Positions 6,215 through 20,656 of a stretch of 24,000 bases of DNA are shown piece by piece (the first letter of the stretch is position 1; every line of letters begins with the position of its first letter). A program made the translations under genes and the position numbers. The notes under the pieces were generated by a model. That model did no database searches. It saw only the letters and a program-made list of their open reading frames with translations, and was not told the origin of the DNA. The stretch is taken from assembly GCA_019058015.1 (NCBI GenBank), contig JAHLWH010000075.1, positions 5,260-29,259 of the forward strand. Reading direction: 5' to 3'. The stretch is from Promethearchaeota archaeon. GTDB lineage: Archaea; Asgardarchaeota; Lokiarchaeia; Sigyniarchaeales; SOKP01.

Positions 6215-7606
6215 ATGAGTGAACTTGAGAAGGAGAGTAGTGTCTCAAACTTAAACATGGCCTCTTACAGTATGGCAGAATTTATATACATGGTATTTAG
6301 TGGAATCTTCGGTTCGTTTTTCATTTTTTACTGGGAAACTGAAGTGGGATTAAATATATGGATTGTGACGCTTGGTTATATAATTTATGCAATCTGGAAT
6401 TCAATTAATGATCCTCTTGTTGGTTACTTCACTGACAAACCCAATAAACTTTGGAAAAAATATGGTAAGCGATTTCCGTTCATTATTATTGGAGGAATTC
6501 CTTCAATTTTTATGCTTGCACTTATTTTTACTCCACCTTACTTGGATCCCATAACCGGAGCATGGATATATTTTGGATGGATATTATTATCCTCATGCAT
6601 GTATGAGCTATTTTACACAATTTTCCAACTTAGTAATGCGGCATTATTTCCAGATAAATTTCGTTCTGATAATGAACGAAGAAAGGCAGGTTTCTTTCGC
6701 ATGGGATTAGGACTTGTGGGTACTGCAGTTGGGTTAATCATTCCTCCACTGTTTATTTCTTATGGAGATCGCCAATCCTATACTAATATGGCATGGATAT
6801 TTGTTGTTCTTAATCTGGTCTTTTTCTTGACAATTATTCCTGGACATAGAGAATCAGCGCAAATGAGAGAAAGATATATGCAAGAACCAAGTGCTGAAAA
6901 GAAGTTGCCGTTTTTGAAAACAATGAAAATCGTGGTTACTCAGAAGAATTTTATTGTATATATGATTGTTTTTCTATTTGATGGAATTATCGGTGCGTGT
7001 CTAGTAGGATCTATACAATATGCTACTAAATATATATTACTGGAGGACCCGACAATGTCTATTATCGTTTTAGCCGGATTTCTTTTAGGTTCTTTAGGAT
7101 CGATATTCTTTTGGCTTATTTTTTCACAAAAGTTAAATAATAATAGAAAAATGTTAATAATTGGCGTTTTTCTAAATACGATCTTCTTATTTCCATTTAT
7201 GTTTGTACAAGGATTACTTGGTTTTGTTATAGCTGCAGTAATATTGGGAATTGGAGGAGGTGCGCTGAGAATAGGAAGAAGTCCTGTTTTAGGTGACACG
7301 ATTGATGAAGCTACTGTCAAATCAGGTCAAAGACTTGAGGGTTCTTATATGGGAGTGTACGCTTTTTTTGTTAGGTTTGGACTTATTGGCCAAATATTGA
7401 TTTTTGCAATAGTACATGAATTAACTGGATTTAATGCAGATGTACTAATTCAAACTGAATTAGCTCTATTTGGAATACGTGCTCATTTAGCATTGATACC
7501 AATGATCTTAACTCTCATTGGTTTAGTCATTTTCATTTTTGTGTATGACCTTACTCCTGAAAGAACAAAAGAAATTAAAGAAAAATTAAAAGAATTAAAT
7601 TTATAA
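6215..7606 (+). CDS. MFS-type sugar:cation symporter, GPH (glycoside-pentoside-hexuronide, MelB-like) family
   Basis: 463 aa with about 12 hydrophobic segments. An N-terminal NDPLVGYFTDK motif is typical of GPH transporters. Confidence 0.8.
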   Translation: MSELEKESSVSNLNMASYSMAEFIYMVFSGIFGSFFIFYWETEVGLNIWIVTLGYIIYAIWNSINDPLVGYFTDKPNKLWKKYGKRFPFIIIGGIPSIFMLALIFTPPYLDPITGAWIYFGWILLSSCMYELFYTIFQLSNAALFPDKFRSDNERRKAGFFRMGLGLVGTAVGLIIPPLFISYGDRQSYTNMAWIFVVLNLVFFLTIIPGHRESAQMRERYMQEPSAEKKLPFLKTMKIVVTQKNFIVYMIVFLFDGIIGACLVGSIQYATKYILLEDPTMSIIVLAGFLLGSLGSIFFWLIFSQKLNNNRKMLIIGVFLNTIFLFPFMFVQGLLGFVIAAVILGIGGGALRIGRSPVLGDTIDEATVKSGQRLEGSYMGVYAFFVRFGLIGQILIFAIVHELTGFNADVLIQTELALFGIRAHLALIPMILTLIGLVIFIFVYDLTPERTKEIKEKLKELNL

Positions 7607-7613
7607 TTTTTTT
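7607..7613 (+). terminator. oligo-T tract immediately after the transporter stop codon
   Basis: A T7 run starts 1 nt after the TAA at 7604-7606, and further T-runs follow. This is an archaeal oligo-T termination signal. Confidence 0.3.
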
Positions 7614-8039
7614 CTTTTATCTTATTTTATTTTATTTTTTTTATTACATTATCATGCCAAATAAATTACGTAGACTCACAAAATTACAAATGATTTTTTT
7701 CTGAATAAATTAGAAAAATTAGTAAAAGAAGCTAAACTTGGACTAAATGAATTAGCGAAAACTTACCCAATTTCTAAAGAGGATTATGAATTTGAAATGT
7801 CTTGGTGGAATAAATACTAAATCTTTCTTAAGTATTTAAAGAGGAGAAAAAATTTCACCATTATATAAAAAAGTCGAAAATATCGCCGAAAAAATCATAT
7901 CTTACATTGGCTGAATTTTCAAATTTTTATCATTAAGTTTAAATAACAATTTAATAAACTTATAACTGTTTTTTTAAAAAAATTTTTTAAAAAATATTAG
8001 GGTCTTTTAAATTTAGATTTTGTTAAAAGTCAAAAAAAA

Positions 8040-8429
8040 CTATTCAAATTCTATCACTGTCCCGCACATACTACATATATTTTCCCCCTTTTTAACTTCT
8101 GCTCCACAAAAACGACAATAGAGTATTTGTTCACTATATATTATGGGCGTTTCTGGGAGTATTGTTGTTTGAGACACACTCTGAGCGCGTTTCCAATTAG
8201 GTGGATAACTAAGAATTCTTGTGGTTTTAAGAGTCTTTTGGTTACATATATCGCAACGTCCTCTTTTTAGATTTCTACTGCAAGAATTGCAAATAACCCT
8301 CTCACAATTGGGACATAAGCGAACTTCAACCCATGGATTTTTTTTTGCAATATCTCTTCCACAAATATCACATGGTAGTGGGGGCTTCGGTTCTTTATCA
8401 ACCTTAAAAAATTTCTTTATGAAAGACAT
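8040..8429 (-). CDS. zinc-finger protein: N-terminal C4C4 RING-like cross-brace pattern plus C-terminal zinc ribbon
   Basis: 129 aa. The N-terminal cysteine pattern is C20-x2-C23-x15-C39-x2-C42-x4-C47-x2-C50-x8-C59-x2-C62. The C-terminal pattern is C105-x2-C108-x10-C119-x2-C122. It lies 22 nt downstream of the ESCRT-III gene on the same strand. Confidence 0.7.
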   Translation of the reverse strand: MSFIKKFFKVDKEPKPPLPCDICGRDIAKKNPWVEVRLCPNCERVICNSCSRNLKRGRCDICNQKTLKTTRILSYPPNWKRAQSVSQTTILPETPIIYSEQILYCRFCGAEVKKGENICSMCGTVIEFE

Positions 8430-8451
8430 TTTTAGATTTTTAATTTAATTT

Positions 8452-9099
8452 TTAGTCATCAGATTCTTTCAATTCTTTAAGCTCATTTTCTAGATCTTTA
8501 ATTCGTTGATCCCCACCCACTGTTGGGAGTTGTATTCCTGTTTCAACCGAGATTTCAGCATCGATCTCGCCTAAAACATTCATTACCTCTTCATTCGAAA
8601 CACTTGTATCAACATTAATGTTTTCAATTCCATCTGCAGTAATTTCTTCGGTAACTTGGAAGTCTTCAATTCCGATATCAATATCTTTGATTGTTTCGGT
8701 TATTTCAGGAATAGATATCTGTGATTTTAATCCTGAAACGGAACCAGCTATTGCTTTCATAATTCCAGCAACATCTTTAATTGCGGAGGCTTGTTCTAAC
8801 TTAAATTGCAATCCTTCAAGATTTAATTTAAAGGTTGAAATTCCTTTTGACCATTTTTTAAATTGTAAATAACCTCGGGCATGAACTTCAGCACCTTTCA
8901 TATCCCCTTCTTTTCGCAATTTTACAGCTTTAGTTCTTGCCTGTTTTGCTTTCGCTTCAAGTTTTTTTGCTTGTCTTTCTAAGCGCTTGTTAAAGATTTT
9001 AAGTTTAACGGTAACGGATCTAATATCCCGATCTTTTGATCTACCACCACTTAACCAACCACTTACGTCTTTTAGAAAACCCAAAATGATTCTACTCAA
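8452..9099 (-). CDS. ESCRT-III family protein (Snf7 superfamily, Vps2/24/46-like)
   Basis: 215 aa. It has a basic N-terminal helical hairpin (KLKIFNKRLERQAKKLEAKAKQARTKAVKLRKEG) and an acidic C-terminal half. The C-terminal IKDLENELKELK resembles a MIM1 motif. The start is TTG (9097-9099), preceded directly by an in-frame stop. It is divergent from vps4. Confidence 0.85.
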   Translation of the reverse strand: MSRIILGFLKDVSGWLSGGRSKDRDIRSVTVKLKIFNKRLERQAKKLEAKAKQARTKAVKLRKEGDMKGAEVHARGYLQFKKWSKGISTFKLNLEGLQFKLEQASAIKDVAGIMKAIAGSVSGLKSQISIPEITETIKDIDIGIEDFQVTEEITADGIENINVDTSVSNEEVMNVLGEIDAEISVETGIQLPTVGGDQRIKDLENELKELKESDD

Positions 9100-9156
9100 T
9101 TATTTTAAAATTAATCTTCTTAAAATTACTTAAGAATTAAATATTTATTTTAATAT

Positions 9157-9221
9157 ATATCTTAAAAAATATTTAAGATATTTCAATCTATTTTTATTAG
9201 TAGAGATATCTTAAAAAATAT
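9157..9221. promoter_or_regulatory. repeated 16-bp motif and 10-bp-arm inverted repeat in the ESCRT-III / vps4 divergent promoter region
   Basis: ATATCTTAAAAAATAT occurs exactly at 9157-9172 and 9206-9221. The first copy is part of the inverted repeat ATATCTTAAA-AAATA-TTTAAGATAT (9157-9181). The second copy overlaps a TATA-like element about 28 bp upstream of the vps4 ATG. Confidence 0.4.
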
Positions 9222-9244
9222 ATTCTGTTGAGAGTAAAAATTAA

Positions 9245-10462
9245 ATGAGTTCTTTAGATTCTAAGTTGTTTTCTTTTGCAATGAAAGAAGCAAAAGAAGC
9301 AGTTGAGTATGATAAAAAGGCTGAATATCAAAAAGCCATTAATAAATATAGTAGAGCAGCTGAAATATTAATTCAATTTGCAAAATACAATAAAAATCCA
9401 AGTTTGCAAAAACTATGCCAAGAAAAAATTCACGAATATGTCTCCCGTGCTAAAACATTAAAAAGAAGTTTGAAACCTTATATAAAAGGAAGGATTTCAA
9501 CTCGTAAGAGAGTAACTAAAAAGGGAATAGATTCAGAAGAAATCGAAGAAGAGGAGATTTTAACCAAAGAGCAACAAGAACTTAGAGAAACCATATCAGG
9601 AACAATTATTACGGAAGTTCCGAATATCCGATGGGAAGATATTGCTGGTTTAACAGATTGTAAACAATCACTTAGAGAAGCAATAGTCTTGCCAATAATG
9701 AGACCAGAATTATTTACCGGTGCTAGAAAGCCATGGTCTGGTATTCTTTTATATGGTCCTCCTGGTTGTGGAAAAACTCTGCTCGCTCAAGCGGCAGCAA
9801 CAGAATGTGAAGCAACTTTTTTTAGTGCATCAGCTGCTGAATTATTATCAAAATGGCTTGGGGAAAGTGAGAAATTAATTAGTTCATTATTTAAATTAGC
9901 AAGACTTGAAGCACCAAGTATCATATTTTTTGATGAAATTGATTCGATCACGACTTCGAGGGGATATGGTTCGGAAAGTGGTGGAGAGAGAAGAATTAAA
10001 ACTCAATTATTAGGTGAAATTCAAGGACTTAAATCAAGGACTGAAAAATTACTTTTAATTTTAGGTGCAACAAATCGACCTTGGGATATTGATACAGCAA
10101 TGTTGCGAAGATTTGAGAAAAAAATTTATGTCCCTATCCCAGATGAAGAAGCGAGAGAAGCAATTTTTAAAATACATACAGCTGGGGTAAATCTCTCACT
10201 TACAGATGATGATTTTAGGGAACTTGGAGAAAGAACTGCGGGATATTCCGGATCTGATATTGCTAATGTCTGTAGAGAAGTGATTATGAGACCGATAAGA
10301 GAGTTAGATATGAGTGGAAAAATAACTGCCGAAGCAGAGGAAATTATCGTTAGAGATGTAAATATAGAAGATTTTAACAAAACACTTAAAAAAATTAAAC
10401 CAATTGTATCTGAAAAAGAAATAAAGAGATACCATGAGTGGTTTGAACAATTTGGTGAATGA
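9245..10462 (+). CDS. vps4: Vps4-type AAA+ ATPase (N-terminal MIT domain plus a single AAA cassette)
   Basis: 405 aa.
- MIT-like three-helix N-terminus (AKEAVEYDKKAEYQKAINKYSRAAEILIQFAKY...YVSRAKTLK).
- Walker A: GPPGCGKT.
- Walker B: IIFFDEID.
- Second region of homology: ATNRPWDIDTAMLRRF.
- Vps4 C-terminal helix region (YHEWFEQFG). Confidence 0.95.
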   Translation: MSSLDSKLFSFAMKEAKEAVEYDKKAEYQKAINKYSRAAEILIQFAKYNKNPSLQKLCQEKIHEYVSRAKTLKRSLKPYIKGRISTRKRVTKKGIDSEEIEEEEILTKEQQELRETISGTIITEVPNIRWEDIAGLTDCKQSLREAIVLPIMRPELFTGARKPWSGILLYGPPGCGKTLLAQAAATECEATFFSASAAELLSKWLGESEKLISSLFKLARLEAPSIIFFDEIDSITTSRGYGSESGGERRIKTQLLGEIQGLKSRTEKLLLILGATNRPWDIDTAMLRRFEKKIYVPIPDEEAREAIFKIHTAGVNLSLTDDDFRELGERTAGYSGSDIANVCREVIMRPIRELDMSGKITAEAEEIIVRDVNIEDFNKTLKKIKPIVSEKEIKRYHEWFEQFGE

Positions 10463-10491
10463 TAAATAGTAATTAGGTGCATCCTTGAACG

Positions 10492-11373
10492 ATGGAAAGA
10501 CAAAAAGCTAAAGAAGTCCCAAAAGAAGAAATTGCTGTATCAGATGAAAAAATTGAAGAACTAAGGAAAGAATTAGAAAGTCTTAAAAAAAAAAAAGAAT
10601 TAAAAGTTAAAGCAGAACAACAAAAGGTTAAGGAAAAAGAAGGGCTAACAATTTCTATTGATTTAGATGATATAGAGAAAAGATTAGATGCTATAGAAGA
10701 ATTTCTTGAAGAAAAAACTCAAAAATCTGAGGTTCTAATTAAAACAAAAGATTTAGATGAGATTGAGAAAGAACTTCAGTCTATCGAAAGCGAAATTGTA
10801 ATTGAACCAAAGGTTATAGAAAAGGAATTAACTTCTTATGAAAAATTAATTAAAGAGCATCCATGGCTTGAAGAAACTAGATATGAATATATGTTTTCTG
10901 CTCCAGATAAAAAGAAAAATGCTAAAGATTATCAATCTTGGTTAATTGAGTGGAGCCAAGTAATTTATGATTATGCCCGAATATCGATATTGCACGTTCT
11001 CTATATTAGAAAATTAAATGCTGAGAAACCATTTTCTAAACTACGCAATAGAGATGGCGCAATCGCCGCAATAGCTCAAAAATTAGTGGATCAAAATATT
11101 GGAGTATGGTTAAATAAAAAAAAGAAAGAAGCATTAAGAATTTATTGGAAAACTTTGGATGAATGGGCAGAAGAAATGCTTGATTGGGCACGGGAAAACG
11201 GTAAATTAGAACCAATTCTAACTTTTGAGATCAGGGAGTCTGGAGAGCTTTTCGCAGAATTACCAAAAAGGGATTTGACGCGGATATTTAAAAGATTAGA
11301 AAAAGAAGGCAAAGGAGAAGTAATTAAATCTGAAGATGGAGATATTACCTTTAAAATAAATTTAAATTATTAG
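10492..11373 (+). CDS. Vps25-like ESCRT-II subunit (tandem winged helix) with a ~130-aa K/E-rich N-terminal extension
   Basis: The C-terminal ~160 aa align by eye with eukaryotic Vps25/EAP20. For example, LRIYWKTLDEWAEEMLDWARENGKLEPILTFEIRE matches LIMWRRPEEWGKLIYQWVSRSG..VFTLYEL, and the end GEVIKSEDGDITFKI matches AEIITVSDGRGVKF. It lies 29 nt downstream of vps4. Confidence 0.8.
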   Translation: MERQKAKEVPKEEIAVSDEKIEELRKELESLKKKKELKVKAEQQKVKEKEGLTISIDLDDIEKRLDAIEEFLEEKTQKSEVLIKTKDLDEIEKELQSIESEIVIEPKVIEKELTSYEKLIKEHPWLEETRYEYMFSAPDKKKNAKDYQSWLIEWSQVIYDYARISILHVLYIRKLNAEKPFSKLRNRDGAIAAIAQKLVDQNIGVWLNKKKKEALRIYWKTLDEWAEEMLDWARENGKLEPILTFEIRESGELFAELPKRDLTRIFKRLEKEGKGEVIKSEDGDITFKINLNY

Positions 11374-11374
11374 A

Positions 11375-12091
11375 CTATGAAATTGAAGGAAAATACCACT
11401 TCTGTCCTCTTAAATAGGATTCGTCTTTTTTGGCAAAACCGCTAGCTTCTAAAGAATTTAATGCCCTCAAGACTCTTTCTTGGGACCATGATAATTCTGA
11501 GCATGCATCTTCTAAAGAAATAAAACCTTTTTCTGAAGCTAATGAAATTACTTTTGCCTCATCATCGGTATGTTGAATGGAGAAAAATCTAACTTCAATA
11601 ACTCCATCATCAAGCTCTCGAATATTAGGAATTACTTTCCTTTTCTTTAAAAGATACATAGCTTTAATTACATCTTCAATCTCTAAATGATTTATGAGAA
11701 TACCTGTATTCACAATTTCAAATACGTCAGAGATCGGCATAATACCCCCAGTTTCTTCTTTTTCCATTAAAACTCTTTGGTATGCTAACATTCCTAATTT
11801 TTCATGATCAATTTTTCTCTTTTTCCTTAAGACGTCGATTTCTTCAATTCTTTCAGTAATAATTCGCGAAGTGGGTATATCAAATTTCCTCTGAAGTTCT
11901 TTAATTTCATCTCTTAATTCTGGATCTAAAGCAAGAATTACTCCATGTTTGATTGCAATTTCTCTTATTTTGTCTTTAGCAAATTCTCTTGTTTTTGCTT
12001 CTTCTTCAAGTTCTTTTTGTTTTAACTCTATGCCCTTCCTCTTCATTGCTTCTTTTAGATCAATATCATCCTCTATTTTGCGAATCCCCAT
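11375..12091 (-). CDS. Vps22/Vps36-like EAP30-domain ESCRT-II subunit
   Basis: 238 aa. The segment GGIMPISDVFEIVN...VIKAMYLLKK...LASEKGFISLEDACSELSWSQERVLRALNSLEASGFAKKD...KWYFPSI parallels SNF8/Vps22 (GGLITLEELHQQV...LAEKNGYVTVSEIKASLKWETERARQVLEHLLKEGLAWLD...YWLPALF). It is convergent with the Vps25-like gene, with a 1-nt gap. Confidence 0.8.
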   Translation of the reverse strand: MGIRKIEDDIDLKEAMKRKGIELKQKELEEEAKTREFAKDKIREIAIKHGVILALDPELRDEIKELQRKFDIPTSRIITERIEEIDVLRKKRKIDHEKLGMLAYQRVLMEKEETGGIMPISDVFEIVNTGILINHLEIEDVIKAMYLLKKRKVIPNIRELDDGVIEVRFFSIQHTDDEAKVISLASEKGFISLEDACSELSWSQERVLRALNSLEASGFAKKDESYLRGQKWYFPSIS

Positions 12092-12194
12092 ATAGTTCTA
12101 CGACTTTTTTAAATACACTTACTTTTAATTTTTAATTTTATAATTATTAAATAATAATAAGATTATATTTTTTTTTCGCTTTATTAATTTGATA

Positions 12195-12779
12195 ATGCCC
12201 AATTTTGAAGAAATTTTTCGAAAATTAAATAAAAATGAAAAAAAAATTGTAAAAGATTCTCTACATAATATCTCTGACAAGATTTGGGAATATTTTCTTG
12301 AAGAGCAATATGAAATATATATTAAAATTTCAGAATCAAAAAAAAATAAAACCTCTCTTGAATTGTTTTTAGTTCCCCAACAATTAGAGCCAGAAGTAAA
12401 TAAAATTAAAAACCTTACAACAATAGATTTTACAGGAATTCCATTGGGGTTTATTAAAAATAAGCGATTGTTTTTAAGTTTAGAAACGGCAGAATTGCTT
12501 TTCAATTTACATAAAATAGATCCTAGGATTATTTTAATCCTTAATGAAAATGGTGAAAAATCTGTATTATATGGAAATCCAATAAAAAAAAGCATGATTT
12601 TAGAGATTTCTTCTGAAGTTCAGGCAAATCGGATAGTATTTTTAATTAATAAAAATCAAGAGTTTCTCGGTCTTGGATTATTAAAAGCCAATTACGAGAA
12701 GTATAGAAAACTAAAGAATAATGATAATATTGCATTAAATTTGGTTGATAAAGGTTCTTATTTAAGAAGAGATCAATGA
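12195..12779 (+). CDS. Nip7-like pre-PUA/PUA domain protein (archaeal UPF0113 type)
   Basis: The C-terminus IVFLINKNQEFLGLGLL...NLVDKGSYLRRDQ matches the archaeal Nip7 ending (VVVLND.GDIIGIGL...NLKDVGEFLRR). The ATG at 12195 is preferred over the TTG at 12189. Confidence 0.75.
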   Translation: MPNFEEIFRKLNKNEKKIVKDSLHNISDKIWEYFLEEQYEIYIKISESKKNKTSLELFLVPQQLEPEVNKIKNLTTIDFTGIPLGFIKNKRLFLSLETAELLFNLHKIDPRIILILNENGEKSVLYGNPIKKSMILEISSEVQANRIVFLINKNQEFLGLGLLKANYEKYRKLKNNDNIALNLVDKGSYLRRDQ

Positions 12780-12909: not shown

Positions 12910-13368
12910 ATGAAACATAAGTTAAAATTATATCTAGATACATCAGTTATCTCAGCATTATTTGATGAGAGAAATCCTGAAAGAAAATCTCTTACAGAGT
13001 CTTTTTTCAAAGAAATTAAAAATTATGAGGTATATGTCTCTGAAATTACTATTGCTGAGATTCAAAAAACGCTTGATCAAGAGATTAAAGAAAAAATGAA
13101 TGAAGAAATGACAAAGTTTTTAGTTCTTACTATATCAGATGAAATAGAAGAATTAGCAAAAGAGATTATCCAAAAAGGGGCAATTAATGAATCGTATTCG
13201 GAGGATGCTTATCATATTGCTATAGCTATAATAAATGGGATGGATTTTCTTTTAAGTTGGAATTTTAGGCATATAGTAAGAAAAAAAACAAAAGATATTG
13301 TGAGAATGATTAATACTTTAAAAAATTTAAGACAAATCGAAATTATAACTCCAGCAGAATTATTGTAG
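12910..13368 (+). CDS. PIN-domain protein (VapC-like putative toxin ribonuclease)
   Basis: 152 aa. Acidic PIN positions are D10 (LYLDTSV), E45 (VSEITIAE) and D99 (SEDAYHIAIA). The fourth position is Asn (SWNFRH). AAGGAG lies upstream of the ATG. Confidence 0.75.
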   Translation: MKHKLKLYLDTSVISALFDERNPERKSLTESFFKEIKNYEVYVSEITIAEIQKTLDQEIKEKMNEEMTKFLVLTISDEIEELAKEIIQKGAINESYSEDAYHIAIAIINGMDFLLSWNFRHIVRKKTKDIVRMINTLKNLRQIEIITPAELL

Positions 13369-13375
13369 TAGGTGT

Positions 13376-13564
13376 ATGAAAATTTTAAGAGAAGAAGATA
13401 TTGAAAGAATAAAAAGTGAGGTTGAGCTAGAATTTCCAAACGATTTCGCATTACAACAAATCCATATTGCCAGGAAAATTATTACTAAAGAAGCGGAGAT
13501 GAAGGGATTAAGTTACCTTGATTATATCAAGTTATTAACTAAAGACACAAAAGCTATTCAATGA
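13376..13564 (+). CDS. small hypothetical protein downstream of the PIN gene (candidate partner)
   Basis: 62-aa ORF that begins 8 nt after the PIN stop. AGGTG lies about 3 nt upstream of the ATG. It is predicted helical and I recognise no family. Confidence 0.45.
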   Translation: MKILREEDIERIKSEVELEFPNDFALQQIHIARKIITKEAEMKGLSYLDYIKLLTKDTKAIQ

Positions 13565-14686: not shown

Positions 14687-15073
14687 TTAGCATAAATTCT
14701 TTTTGATTTTATTACGCGCACCAGGTAAATATTTTTTTATCTTTTTAATCCATCCTAAGGGGATTTTTGTATTTTCGAAAATTGTTTTATTATCTGCTTC
14801 TTCGAGTTGATCGAAATAAAAATAGCCATTTTTGATAAATTGAGCTAATCTCTTAGTACCCAGATACTTTATACAATCTTTATATTTCCTTAAACTTATC
14901 GTATGAATCAATTTTTCCGCCTGAGCCGGGAAATGAGAAATATACCATTTAAGATTTTTATCAGTAATTACAATATAATCTTTTCCCAGTTGTTCGCCAG
15001 TATATATATTAAAACCCAATCGTGCCAAGTTTTCTCTAATTGTGGGAATATTTACATTCAATTTTTTTCTCAA
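14687..15073 (-). CDS. hypothetical HTH-like protein; the frame is open for 88 more codons upstream (to 15337) with no canonical start
   Basis: The ORF-track start is the TTG at 15071-15073. The same frame has no stop and no ATG/GTG/TTG between 15074 and 15337. It is in phase with the 15338-15991 gene. An HTH-like segment reads YAITQLRKKLNVNIPTIRENLARLG. Confidence 0.5.
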   Translation of the reverse strand: MRKKLNVNIPTIRENLARLGFNIYTGEQLGKDYIVITDKNLKWYISHFPAQAEKLIHTISLRKYKDCIKYLGTKRLAQFIKNGYFYFDQLEEADNKTIFENTKIPLGWIKKIKKYLPGARNKIKKNLC

Positions 15074-15337
15074 TTGAGTTATAGCATATTTTTTTTCAAT
15101 TGATGAAAGCTCATTAATGAATTTAAATATAAATTTTGTTTCAGGAGAACTTTCAATATTATTTTGAAAAAATTGAATTTCATTATTAGAGTTTAAATAA
15201 TACTCCTCTAATTCTCGATATTCTTCAAATTCATTCTCAAGATTTTGAAGTATACTTTTAATTTGACTCCTTTTTAAAACTCTAGATTCTTCTAATTCCT
15301 CAAACTCACTATCGATTTTTTGAAATATAGTTGCTAT

Positions 15338-15991
15338 TTATTGCTGAATATCTTCAATTCCGTTATTGATATTTTCTATACAATCATGAACTTCTTTTTT
15401 AGAGATAGAGTAAAGACCATCTTTTTCTTTATTTTTAATTTTAAAAATAAATGAGAAATGTTTAGAGAAAAAATCTCTACCCAAAACCAGTTGAGATATA
15501 TTTTCATTTTCATTCTTTTTTAATTCAATATCTAATCCAATTTCAGAAGATTCGTATTGTTTAATCCTTTGGTTAAATACATCTATGTTATTTACACTAA
15601 AAGTTCCTAAGATTAAATTAAATTCACCTTGATTGAGATCGATAATAATATGATCTTCTACTAAAGGAAGATTATTACTCCTTTCGATTAGAATGTTATA
15701 TATCTTTCTTAATAAAATCATAAGGGGTAGAGTTTTGAAGCCATCGATTTTGATCTTGTCATTATAAATACCATTCCATAACTCTTTATTTAAACTGAAT
15801 TCAAAATTTATTCCTTCTAATTTTTCTATATTTTTTTGAAGTTCAAGTGAAACATTTTGAAATTTTTTTAAGTTATCACCTAATTCTTGTATCCGTGCTC
15901 CCAAATTATGATTTAACAAATCCTTATCTACAAGAAATCTCTCTACTTCTTTAAATTCCATAAAAAAATACTCTAAATATTCAGTTTCCAT
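15338..15991 (-). CDS. hypothetical protein (possible N-terminal part of a gene interrupted by an in-frame TAA)
   Basis: 217 aa counted from the ATG at 15989-15991 (the TTG at 16000 is an alternative start). It ends at the TAA at 15338-15340. I recognise no domain. Confidence 0.6.
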   Translation of the reverse strand: METEYLEYFFMEFKEVERFLVDKDLLNHNLGARIQELGDNLKKFQNVSLELQKNIEKLEGINFEFSLNKELWNGIYNDKIKIDGFKTLPLMILLRKIYNILIERSNNLPLVEDHIIIDLNQGEFNLILGTFSVNNIDVFNQRIKQYESSEIGLDIELKKNENENISQLVLGRDFFSKHFSFIFKIKNKEKDGLYSISKKEVHDCIENINNGIEDIQQ

Positions 15992-16185
15992 AAAAATCAA
16001 ATAAGTTTTTTCTACTTTTTTTACATATTATTCACAATCAGAAATTTTTATGAATATAATATGTGAATATTTTATATTTGAACAAAATACAAATAGTAAT
16101 TTGATATTAAATTTAATTGCGTTAATGAGTATAAATTAAAATTTGATAATCATTTTAAATAGAATAGAATTTGGGCAATATATCA

Positions 16186-20149: not shown

Positions 20150-20281
20150 CCCATTATTCAAAAATAGTTGTAAGTAAAAATTATAATAATTAACAATTTA
20201 TGTGAATAAACAATAAAAGCCATAATAAATATATATAACTTAATTTAGTAATTCACTTAAAACGATAAATTTTTGATTGAT

Positions 20282-20656
20282 ATGTTGTGTCCTCACGGCT
20301 TAGACAATGTTGCCTGCCCAATATGCCGAATTGGAATTAAAGTAATGCCTCCCGTTCGTTTAGAGATTGAAGATTCTCAATCAAAAATATTACAACAGAT
20401 AAACCCAGCAATAAAAGAAATTATAGATAGGAGAACTAAAACATTCAATTTATTAACTGATATAAAGCCAAATTTGAGTTTTAATCCAAATTTATTTATA
20501 CCAGAACCACCTTCAATTGGCAAAATCTCATTAATGAACCCTCCGATATACAAAAGATTGAAGGAACTAGATGCTGAAATCCCTAAAGAATTTAATACAC
20601 TTCAAGAGATTTCGGTGAAATTACCCGATGGAAAAATTAAGAAAACTAAATTATAA
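20282..20656 (+). CDS. hypothetical protein with an N-terminal CxxxxxxxxCxxC zinc-knuckle-like motif
   Basis: ORF starting MLCPHGLDNVACPICR. The remainder is Pro/Asn/Ile-rich with no recognisable domain. The ATG at 20282 is preferred over the TTG at 20273. Confidence 0.45.
   Translation: MLCPHGLDNVACPICRIGIKVMPPVRLEIEDSQSKILQQINPAIKEIIDRRTKTFNLLTDIKPNLSFNPNLFIPEPPSIGKISLMNPPIYKRLKELDAEIPKEFNTLQEISVKLPDGKIKKTKL

Follow-up and report, generated by a model that had tools for sequence, protein, structure and literature searches.

The window analysed here, a stretch of 24,000 nucleotides from contig JAHLWH010000075.1 of a Promethearchaeota archaeon, very probably contains the core ESCRT-II/ESCRT-III/Vps4 cluster of a Lokiarchaeia Asgard archaeon, in the layout already published for this class. 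This reading is carried by the gene content and domain architectures, the intact catalytic residues of Vps4, the A-type assignment of the ESCRT-III subunit, an affinity to Asgard rather than Cdv proteins, and conserved synteny. An earlier note, made from the sequence alone, had proposed five adjacent genes at this place, encoding a zinc-finger protein, an ESCRT-III protein, Vps4, a Vps25-like protein and an EAP30 (Vps22/36-like) protein, and the list of open reading frames (ORFs) agrees with the coordinates that it gave. The profile hidden Markov model searches that it had called for have now been run, with Pfam profiles compared against their curated gathering cut-offs, and the domains of the four core proteins (Snf7, MIT-AAA-Vps4_C, ESCRT-II/Vps25, and EAP30) all exceed them. 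Thus the four ESCRT genes stand as proposed; the zinc-finger gene is confined to a narrow subclade and does not belong to the cluster in general. The system itself is already known, near-identical sequences are public, and no new principle emerges from the window. Correct identification of the locus is useful because the Asgard ESCRT genes are central evidence for an archaeal origin of eukaryotic membrane remodelling.

The source genome belongs to Lokiarchaeia (Promethearchaeia), as the earlier note had suggested from the gene content and AT-rich composition. In a scan with one genome per species, the closest Vps4 protein, with 96% identity, is that of the metagenome-assembled genome (MAG) of Promethearchaeia archaeon ABR01, followed by other Promethearchaeota MAGs (64-65%), a Heimdallarchaeota chromosome (47%), and CdvC of Aeropyrum (37%). 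The ESCRT-III protein has a near-identical public sequence at 99%, and G+C makes up about 29% of the window. An origin from a eukaryote or a contaminant was also considered and was rejected in view of the intron-less genes, the same low G+C content, the archaeal housekeeping neighbours, and synteny with Promethearchaeota MAGs.

Homologous loci of relatives, designated by L-numbers, were compared using tblastn of the window proteins on the fetched loci and gene tables of further contigs. The gene order CYTH-RsmB-NIP7-EAP30-Vps25-Vps4, followed by the divergent pair ESCRT-III-PfkB, recurs in L001-L004, L081-L086, L093, and L094, and the window shares both this order and its CYTH, RsmB, NIP7, and PfkB flanks. 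At least ten independent loci from Promethearchaeota keep it, their Vps4 proteins being 64-96% identical to that of the window. In all syntenic loci Vps25 follows Vps4 on the same strand, ESCRT-III is divergent from Vps4, and EAP30 converges on Vps25. Since the order of the four ESCRT genes alone also recurs in ten or more independent loci, at Vps4 identities of 47-96%, their adjacency is not due to chance. A looser arrangement, with EAP30, ESCRT-III, Vps4, and Vps25 inside 4.5 kb, is observed in the Heimdall locus L005, and the association of Vps25, ESCRT-III, and Vps4 has been reported to extend across Asgard classes (Hatano 2022, PMC9192718).

Table 1. Genes and intergenic region of the ESCRT locus, in positions of the window
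Feature	Position	Strand	Remark
Zinc-finger protein gene	8040-8429	-	129 aa ORF
ESCRT-III ORF, mechanical extent	8452-9099	-	215 aa; from the conserved TTG: 8452-9084, 210 aa
Divergent ESCRT-III/Vps4 intergenic region	9085-9244		160 bp, very AT-rich
Vps4 AAA+ ATPase gene	9245-10462	+	405 aa
Vps25-like ESCRT-II subunit gene	10492-11373	+	293 aa
Vps22/36-like (EAP30 family) ESCRT-II subunit gene	11375-12091	-	238 aa

The Vps4 protein consists of a MIT domain (51.3 bits, cut-off 30, residues 12-73), a linker, a single AAA cassette (135.3 bits, cut-off 21.2), a lid (AAA_lid_3, 44.2 bits, cut-off 27.2), and a Vps4_C helix (37.1 bits, cut-off 21.3, residues 363-404). The best PDB match of residues 1-122 is the MIT domain of yeast Vps4 (E-value 9.5e-7). 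Global alignment with yeast Vps4, for which a sequence identical to PDB 5uie was used throughout, gave 43.5% identity and placed K177, W204-L205, D230/E231, N277, and R288/R289 opposite yeast K179, W206-M207, D232/E233, N277, and R288/R289. These are the Walker A and B residues, the pore-loop-1 tryptophan, sensor-1, and the paired arginine fingers, so that all catalytic residues are intact and shared with the eukaryotic enzyme. The two proteins differ in the beta-domain region, the Vta1-binding insert of the small AAA subdomain, where gaps of 13 and 16 residues make the window protein about 29 residues shorter; it was therefore filed as Asgard-type and not eukaryote-type. To our knowledge, these archaea have no Vta1.

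An ESCRT-III-superfamily protein next to a MIT-AAA ATPase of the Vps4 family is also what the window has in common with the CdvABC system, and the locus could in principle be a Cdv-type (CdvB/CdvC) division module as in Thermoproteota instead of a eukaryote-like ESCRT system. Several homologues are annotated as 'division protein CdvB' by JGI, NCBIfam ranks its CdvB and CdvC models first, and the PDB matches include 9s9j, a structure of CdvB (5.8e-6). However, both equivalog models remain far below their cut-offs, with 32.8 bits against 370 for cell_div_CdvB on the ESCRT-III protein and 300.7 bits against 650 for cell_div_CdvC on Vps4, and profile scans matched CdvA to none of the window ORFs of at least 90 aa. 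In phmmer comparisons Vps4 scored 369.6 bits with Heimdall Vps4, 327.8 with yeast Vps4, 316.7 with human VPS4B, and 246.6 with Aeropyrum CdvC. A neighbour-joining tree (279 aligned columns, 200 bootstraps, Cdc48 D2 domains as outgroup) could include one CdvC (L007) and one eukaryotic sequence, the rest of the 80 loci having two-domain Cdc48-like ATPases. In this small tree a clade of Asgard and yeast Vps4 without CdvC was recovered in 170 of 200 bootstraps, and a clade of Asgard proteins and CdvC without yeast in just one, in agreement with the published large phylogenies. Finally, the window contains two ESCRT-II genes, and ESCRT-II is reported, in the literature read, to be restricted to Asgard archaea among prokaryotes (PMC9192718), in line with the earlier claim that ESCRT-II beside ESCRT-III and Vps4 is an Asgard trait; and the ESCRT-III C-terminus is MIM1-like and not of the MIM2 type, whereas CdvB proteins lack such a MIM1-like helix (PMC7240154). 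Taken together, a Cdv-type identity of the locus is extremely improbable. The Vps25 and EAP30 domains, on whose recovery the earlier note had made its proposal depend, were both found, Vps4 lies outside CdvC, and neither Cdv model reaches its cut-off.

The ESCRT-III protein matches Snf7 over profile positions 5-166 of 171 (62.9 bits, cut-off 27.3, 3.9e-17). Its locus and strand are as reported previously, and its start has been moved: the N-terminus MGFLKD shared by the homologues is encoded here from the second TTG, at 9084, and the protein therefore has 210 and not 215 residues. Labels in the homologue search read only 'Snf7 family' or 'CdvB', and the subtype is not derivable from these names. 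A single-sequence search of PDB chains placed CHMP2A on top. We then compared a profile built from 13 orthologues with PDB chains, as a comparison of scores and not a phylogeny. The family profile scored 47.5 bits with CHMP2A (1.7e-11), 47.1 with CHMP1B (2.3e-11), 31.0 with CHMP1A (1.9e-6), 24.6 with Vps24 (1.8e-4), and at most 16.2 with Snf7 (E 0.07-2.7), and it found no match to CHMP4 among these chains; the A-type CHMPs thus outscore Snf7 by about 30 bits. Examination of the C-terminus revealed a leucine-rich, MIM1-like helix, I195-K-D-L198-E-N-E-L202-K-E-L205-K206, in which L198, L202, L205, and K206 are invariant in the 13 orthologues. When IKDLENELKELK is set against the MIM1 consensus (D/E)xxLxxRLxxL(K/R), L3, L7, L10, and K11 fit, and positions 0 and 6 do not; similarly relaxed MIM1 motifs have been described for Asgard Vps2/24/46 proteins (Lu 2020, PMC7240154). 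Because the profile scores favour CHMP2A and CHMP1B and the C-terminal helix has invariant MIM1-like leucines, the protein is assigned as the A-type paralogue (Vps2/24/46, the CHMP1-3/IST1 clade).

The intergenic region between ESCRT-III and Vps4 presumably holds the promoters of both genes. At 9157-9181 it has an inverted repeat with perfect 10-bp arms, ATATCTTAAA-N5-TTTAAGATAT, which occurs once in the window against 0.01 occurrences expected by chance. The block of about 55 bp around the repeat is conserved in L001, L083, and L085, and not in L081, L002, and L003. The repeat may be a putative binding site for a regulator, with a promoter or operator role.

The Vps25 gene begins 29 bp past the stop codon of Vps4 on the same strand. 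Its product matches ESCRT-II/Vps25 (PF05871) with 46.5 bits (cut-off 27, 5.7e-12), and its C-terminal half has tandem winged-helix domains at about residues 127-284, both of which are covered by the PDB alignments. The best of these, over residues 97-284, is with 9uyv_A, a solved 'ESCRT-II complex subunit' (2.1e-49), followed by Odin Vps25 7pb9 (3.7e-22), human VPS25 (1.3e-5), and yeast Vps25 (4.7e-4). We take 9uyv_A to be, probably, the MK-D1 VPS25 crystal structure of a 2025 preprint, an assignment that could not be confirmed. The winged-helix domains are preceded by a charged, Lys/Glu-rich extension of about 125 residues (10492-10866). It contains two DLDxIEKxLxxIE repeats, DLDDIEKRLDAIEE at residues 57-70 and DLDEIEKELQSIES at 87-100, that form a tandem duplication of about 30 residues. 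The first 55 or so residues are highly variable, as the alignments with the Vps25 proteins of L002 and L003 begin no earlier than residue 55-59. Eukaryotic Vps25 lacks such a long charged extension and instead uses N-terminal PPXY motifs to bind Vps22 and Vps36, as in the yeast ESCRT-II structure; no PPxY motif is present in the 293-residue translation of the window Vps25. N-terminal extensions on Asgard Vps25 proteins, including that of MK-D1, have already been described (PMC10936438; preprint 10.1101/2025.11.01.685982).

The second ESCRT-II gene is convergent with Vps25, the two stop codons being 1 nt apart. Its product matches EAP30 (PF04157) over profile positions 2-218 of 219 (44.2 bits, cut-off 26.8, 2.4e-11), and among PDB chains it aligns with human VPS36 in the winged-helix region (7.6e-7) and with SNF8/VPS22 over residues 16-224 (4.3e-5). 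No PH/GLUE, OB, or zinc-finger module was found in the 238-residue protein. The EAP30 domain fills its whole length and leaves no space for a GLUE domain or for an OB fold such as that reported for the MK-D1 'VPS36', which points to a Vps22-like architecture as predicted from sequence. In agreement with this, Asgard EAP30 proteins have been reported to be nearer to Vps22 (Hatano 2022, PMC9192718). Unlike eukaryotic ESCRT-II, the window thus has a single Vps22/36-like gene and no GLUE/PH domain.

Winged-helix proteins might also act in nucleic-acid or transcription roles, in which case the adjacency of these two genes to ESCRT-III and Vps4 would be incidental. EAP30 owes its name to a eukaryotic complex for transcription elongation, of which it was first described as a subunit, a weak Pfam match to the winged-helix family E2F_TDP is seen, and the flanking NIP7 and RsmB are RNA/ribosome genes; moreover, DNA stimulates the assembly of Loki ESCRT-III in vitro (PMC11791191). 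Such a role is nevertheless very unlikely to explain the locus. The linkage of Vps25, ESCRT-III, and Vps4 is the most consistent one across Heimdall-, Hel-, Loki-, and Thorarchaeota (PMC9192718) and is kept even in the Heimdall locus L005, and in reported two-hybrid assays Vps25 made contact with ESCRT-IIIB, and Vps22 with ESCRT-I (PMC9192718).

For the ESCRT reading, the above architectures suggest the following model. The Vps22-like protein, probably as a homodimer, would join Vps25 in an ESCRT-II-like platform on the membrane. This platform would nucleate an ESCRT-III polymer, for which a B-type subunit (Vps20/32/60-like) would be encoded elsewhere in the genome, and the A-type subunit (Vps2/24/46-like) from the window would join the polymer and reshape the filament. 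The Vps4 hexamer would then bind the MIM1-like C-terminal helix of ESCRT-III through its MIT domain and extract subunits with ATP, resulting in filament turnover and membrane constriction or scission. Several steps have counterparts in published experiments on orthologues: Loki CHMP4-7 and CHMP1-3 form co-polymers (PMC11791191), Asgard Vps4 rescues a yeast vps4 mutant, MIT-MIM interactions have been modelled and assayed by calorimetry (PMC7240154), and self-interaction of Vps22 as well as the Vps25-ESCRT-IIIB contacts were detected by two-hybrid analysis (PMC9192718). How assembly is ordered in living cells, and which process it serves, can only be inferred; candidate processes are the release of vesicles, the clearing of ubiquitinated membrane proteins, and division.

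Several points weigh against the identification of the locus as a working ESCRT system. NIP7, RsmB, CYTH, and PfkB are conserved just as strongly as the ESCRT genes, and therefore synteny alone does not prove a functional linkage. The fit of the ESCRT-III helix to MIM1 is partial, with four of six consensus positions, and the Vps4 tree is small, containing a single CdvC and a single eukaryotic sequence. The full model needs a B-type ESCRT-III, ESCRT-I, and ubiquitin genes, and the window spans 24 kb only. According to PMC11804906, what ESCRT does in living cells has yet to be established for every Asgard archaeon, and for this organism ESCRT action is predicted from the proteins themselves.

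The gene content of the window agrees with the earlier description also in what it lacks. Profile scans of all other ORFs of at least 90 aa revealed no second Snf7 gene, and no window ORF of this size matched Vps28, Vps23/UEV, ubiquitin, or E1/E2. None of the small unassigned ORFs of the window, inspected by eye, looks ubiquitin-like, and the unassigned ORFs at 1097-1822, 2062-2692, 14687-16000, and 20273-20656 have no profile support as steadiness-box/Vps28 proteins. NCBIfam gave no match for the zinc-finger protein, Vps25, EAP30, or the unassigned ORFs of the window.

Of the two explanations offered previously for these absences, a minimal or a split cluster, only the second holds, and the split is the normal published layout of Lokiarchaeia (Lu 2020, PMC7240154; Hatano 2022, PMC9192718). 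In Lokiarchaeum GC14_75, Vps4 is KKK42121, Vps2/24/46 is KKK42122, and Vps20/32/60 is KKK44605 (Lu 2020, PMC7240154). The first two accessions are consecutive, and thus presumably belong to neighbouring genes; the B-type paralogue KKK44605, ESCRT-I, and the ubiquitin genes are elsewhere in that genome. Similarly, the ubiquitin and ESCRT genes of Lokiarchaeota were reported to lie in two discrete regions, with ESCRT-III and Vps4 linked most tightly to Vps25 (Hatano 2022, PMC9192718). Both accounts agree with the window. GC14_75 and Prometheoarchaeum syntrophicum MK-D1 share with the window the four core genes and an A-type ESCRT-III beside Vps4, a likeness drawn from the papers and from other MAGs of Promethearchaeota. 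The subclade of the window differs from them in an extra gene, for the 129-residue zinc-finger protein, between ESCRT-III and PfkB.

The complete ubiquitin-ESCRT clusters of Odin-, Heimdall-, and Helarchaeia also group homologous ESCRT-III, Vps4, Vps25, and Vps22-like genes, and they add a second ESCRT-III, Vps28, UEV/Vps23, ubiquitin, and E1/E2 (PMC9192718), none of which is in the window. The eukaryotic machinery (yeast Vps22-Vps36-Vps25x2, Vps2/24/Did2, and Vps4) is built from the same domain families, whereas the window genes are intron-less and clustered on the chromosome.

The literature already lists the Lokiarchaeial cluster with its split layout and its proteins and offers biochemical characterisation of part of it, and the only possible lead from the window, a minor one, is the zinc-finger gene, whose product is the only part of the locus without a description in the literature searched. 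Its N-terminal part is an eight-cysteine, two-zinc module (C20, C23, C39, C42, C47, C50, C59, and C62), followed by a conserved YPPxW motif (Y75, P76, P77, and W79) and a C-terminal CxxC-x10-CxxC zinc ribbon (C105-C122). All 12 cysteines and P76 are invariant across 14 sequences of the family. Pfam sees only the C-terminal part, as Zn_Ribbon_1 or DZR, and the Zn_Ribbon_1 match is marginal (25.2 bits, cut-off 25). From its sequence, the protein appears to combine a RING-like two-zinc module with a zinc ribbon, and we did not file it as a RING protein.

The gene begins 22 bp past the stop codon of ESCRT-III, with which it is probably co-transcribed. Its close homologues form just six 90% clusters, with 56-90% identity, and in all contexts recovered (L001, L081-L086) they lie 21-28 bp downstream of ESCRT-III on the same strand and are followed by PfkB. 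In the more distant Lokiarchaeial loci L002, L003, L093, and L094, PfkB comes directly after ESCRT-III and leaves no room for the gene; it is thus an insertion behind ESCRT-III that is specific to one subclade. A whole-library search with the family profile mostly retrieved generic zinc-ribbon repeat proteins, through the C-terminal ribbon, and a few full-length distant relatives with 25-33% identity that have the 12 invariant cysteines and a (Y/F/W)P motif in common with the family. No ESCRT genes are near these distant relatives where their context is visible; one lies on an ORFan-rich contig and another beside a transposase. The two settings, those of homologues with about 33% identity in L087 (JGI Ga0378408_0013911) and L090 (JGI Ga0675942_0028936), are unrelated to each other: one contig has almost no Pfam-matched genes and is possibly viral or mobile, and in the other the neighbour is a DDE transposase. 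The family may therefore travel on mobile elements.

Could this protein be a working ESCRT accessory of the subclade, for example a RING-like E3 or a ubiquitin-binding adaptor through which cargo or ubiquitin would be tied to ESCRT-III? The gene stays within 21-28 bp of ESCRT-III in every locus of the subclade even though its own identity drops to 55-58%. The spacing C-x2-C-x15-C-x2-C-x4-C-x2-C-x8-C-x2-C is compatible with a C4C4 RING pattern like that of CNOT4, which we take as a lead only. RING, Prok-RING, and B-box matches in Pfam recur in 5-7 of the 14 family members, always below threshold, so that no RING family attains its cut-off; the best of them, Prok-RING_4 at 1.3e-4, comes from a single member. 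An AlphaFold2 model of the N-terminal domain alone has a predicted local distance difference test score (pLDDT) of 88.9, and that of the full-length protein is poor (pLDDT 67). E3 RING domains dominate the Foldseek lists obtained with the domain model, but nothing in them is significant: the best E is 0.15 (at least 0.14 over all Foldseek comparisons), and template-modelling (TM) scores are about 0.4-0.5, with at most 0.51 for a RING domain. With the weaker full-length model, the C-terminal ribbon could be superposed on the zinc finger TRABID NZF1 (probability 0.84-0.87). An accessory role is unlikely on balance, given that most Lokiarchaeial clusters do without the gene, that the distant members have no visible ESCRT neighbours, and that the unrelated PfkB is conserved equally well, so that the linkage may be inherited synteny only.

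Doubtful to a slightly greater degree is the fuller proposal that a protein with a RING-like module, YPPxW, and an NZF-like ribbon was recruited into the ESCRT-III operon and could link ubiquitin or cargo directly to ESCRT-III and Vps4. If true, the ubiquitin and ESCRT modules, whose genes otherwise lie apart in the genomes of Lokiarchaeia, would in this lineage be joined by a shortcut of its own. Proof of a ubiquitin-related adaptor would be a small, testable addition to what is known of Asgard ESCRT-cargo coupling.

Several further features were noted around the cluster. Between the zinc-finger gene and PfkB, the window has DUF2961 and MFS_2 sugar-transporter genes (4976-7606, both on the + strand). 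In L081, L083, and L085 PfkB directly follows the zinc-finger gene, and the pair in the window has the appearance of an insertion of two genes confined to this genome. The 433 bp downstream of the zinc-finger gene (7607-8039), a non-coding gap unusually long for the window, contain no ORF of at least 35 aa and no Rfam match at the gathering threshold. In the related MAG locus L094, the ESCRT cluster is flanked by genes for a Roc/Arf-LRR GTPase (1-2107) and a small Arf/Ras-family GTPase (11887-12411), with a TIR-domain gene about 2.5 kb beyond; eukaryote-like GTPases of this type are absent from the window.

On the other side of the cluster, a PIN-domain gene (152 aa) and then a 62-aa ORF occupy 12910-13564, between NIP7 and RsmB, and are probably a toxin-antitoxin pair; with tblastn, none of L001-L005, L010, and L081-L092 gave a PIN match. 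A conserved gene of about 433 aa without known function, at 14687-16000 on the - strand, carries an in-frame TAA in place of a Gln codon at 15338-15340, which splits it into ORFs of 220 and 128 aa. The gene is intact in L001, L081, and L083, and the TAA reflects a nonsense mutation, which would make it a pseudogene here, or else an error of assembly. Finally, a 100-nt tRNA at 3451-3550 on the - strand, detected by Rfam with 42.1 bits and not reported by ARAGORN, is probably an intron-containing archaeal tRNA. Next to it, at 205-2692, unassigned ORFs and a ParB-HTH-like gene form a block that might be an integrated element.

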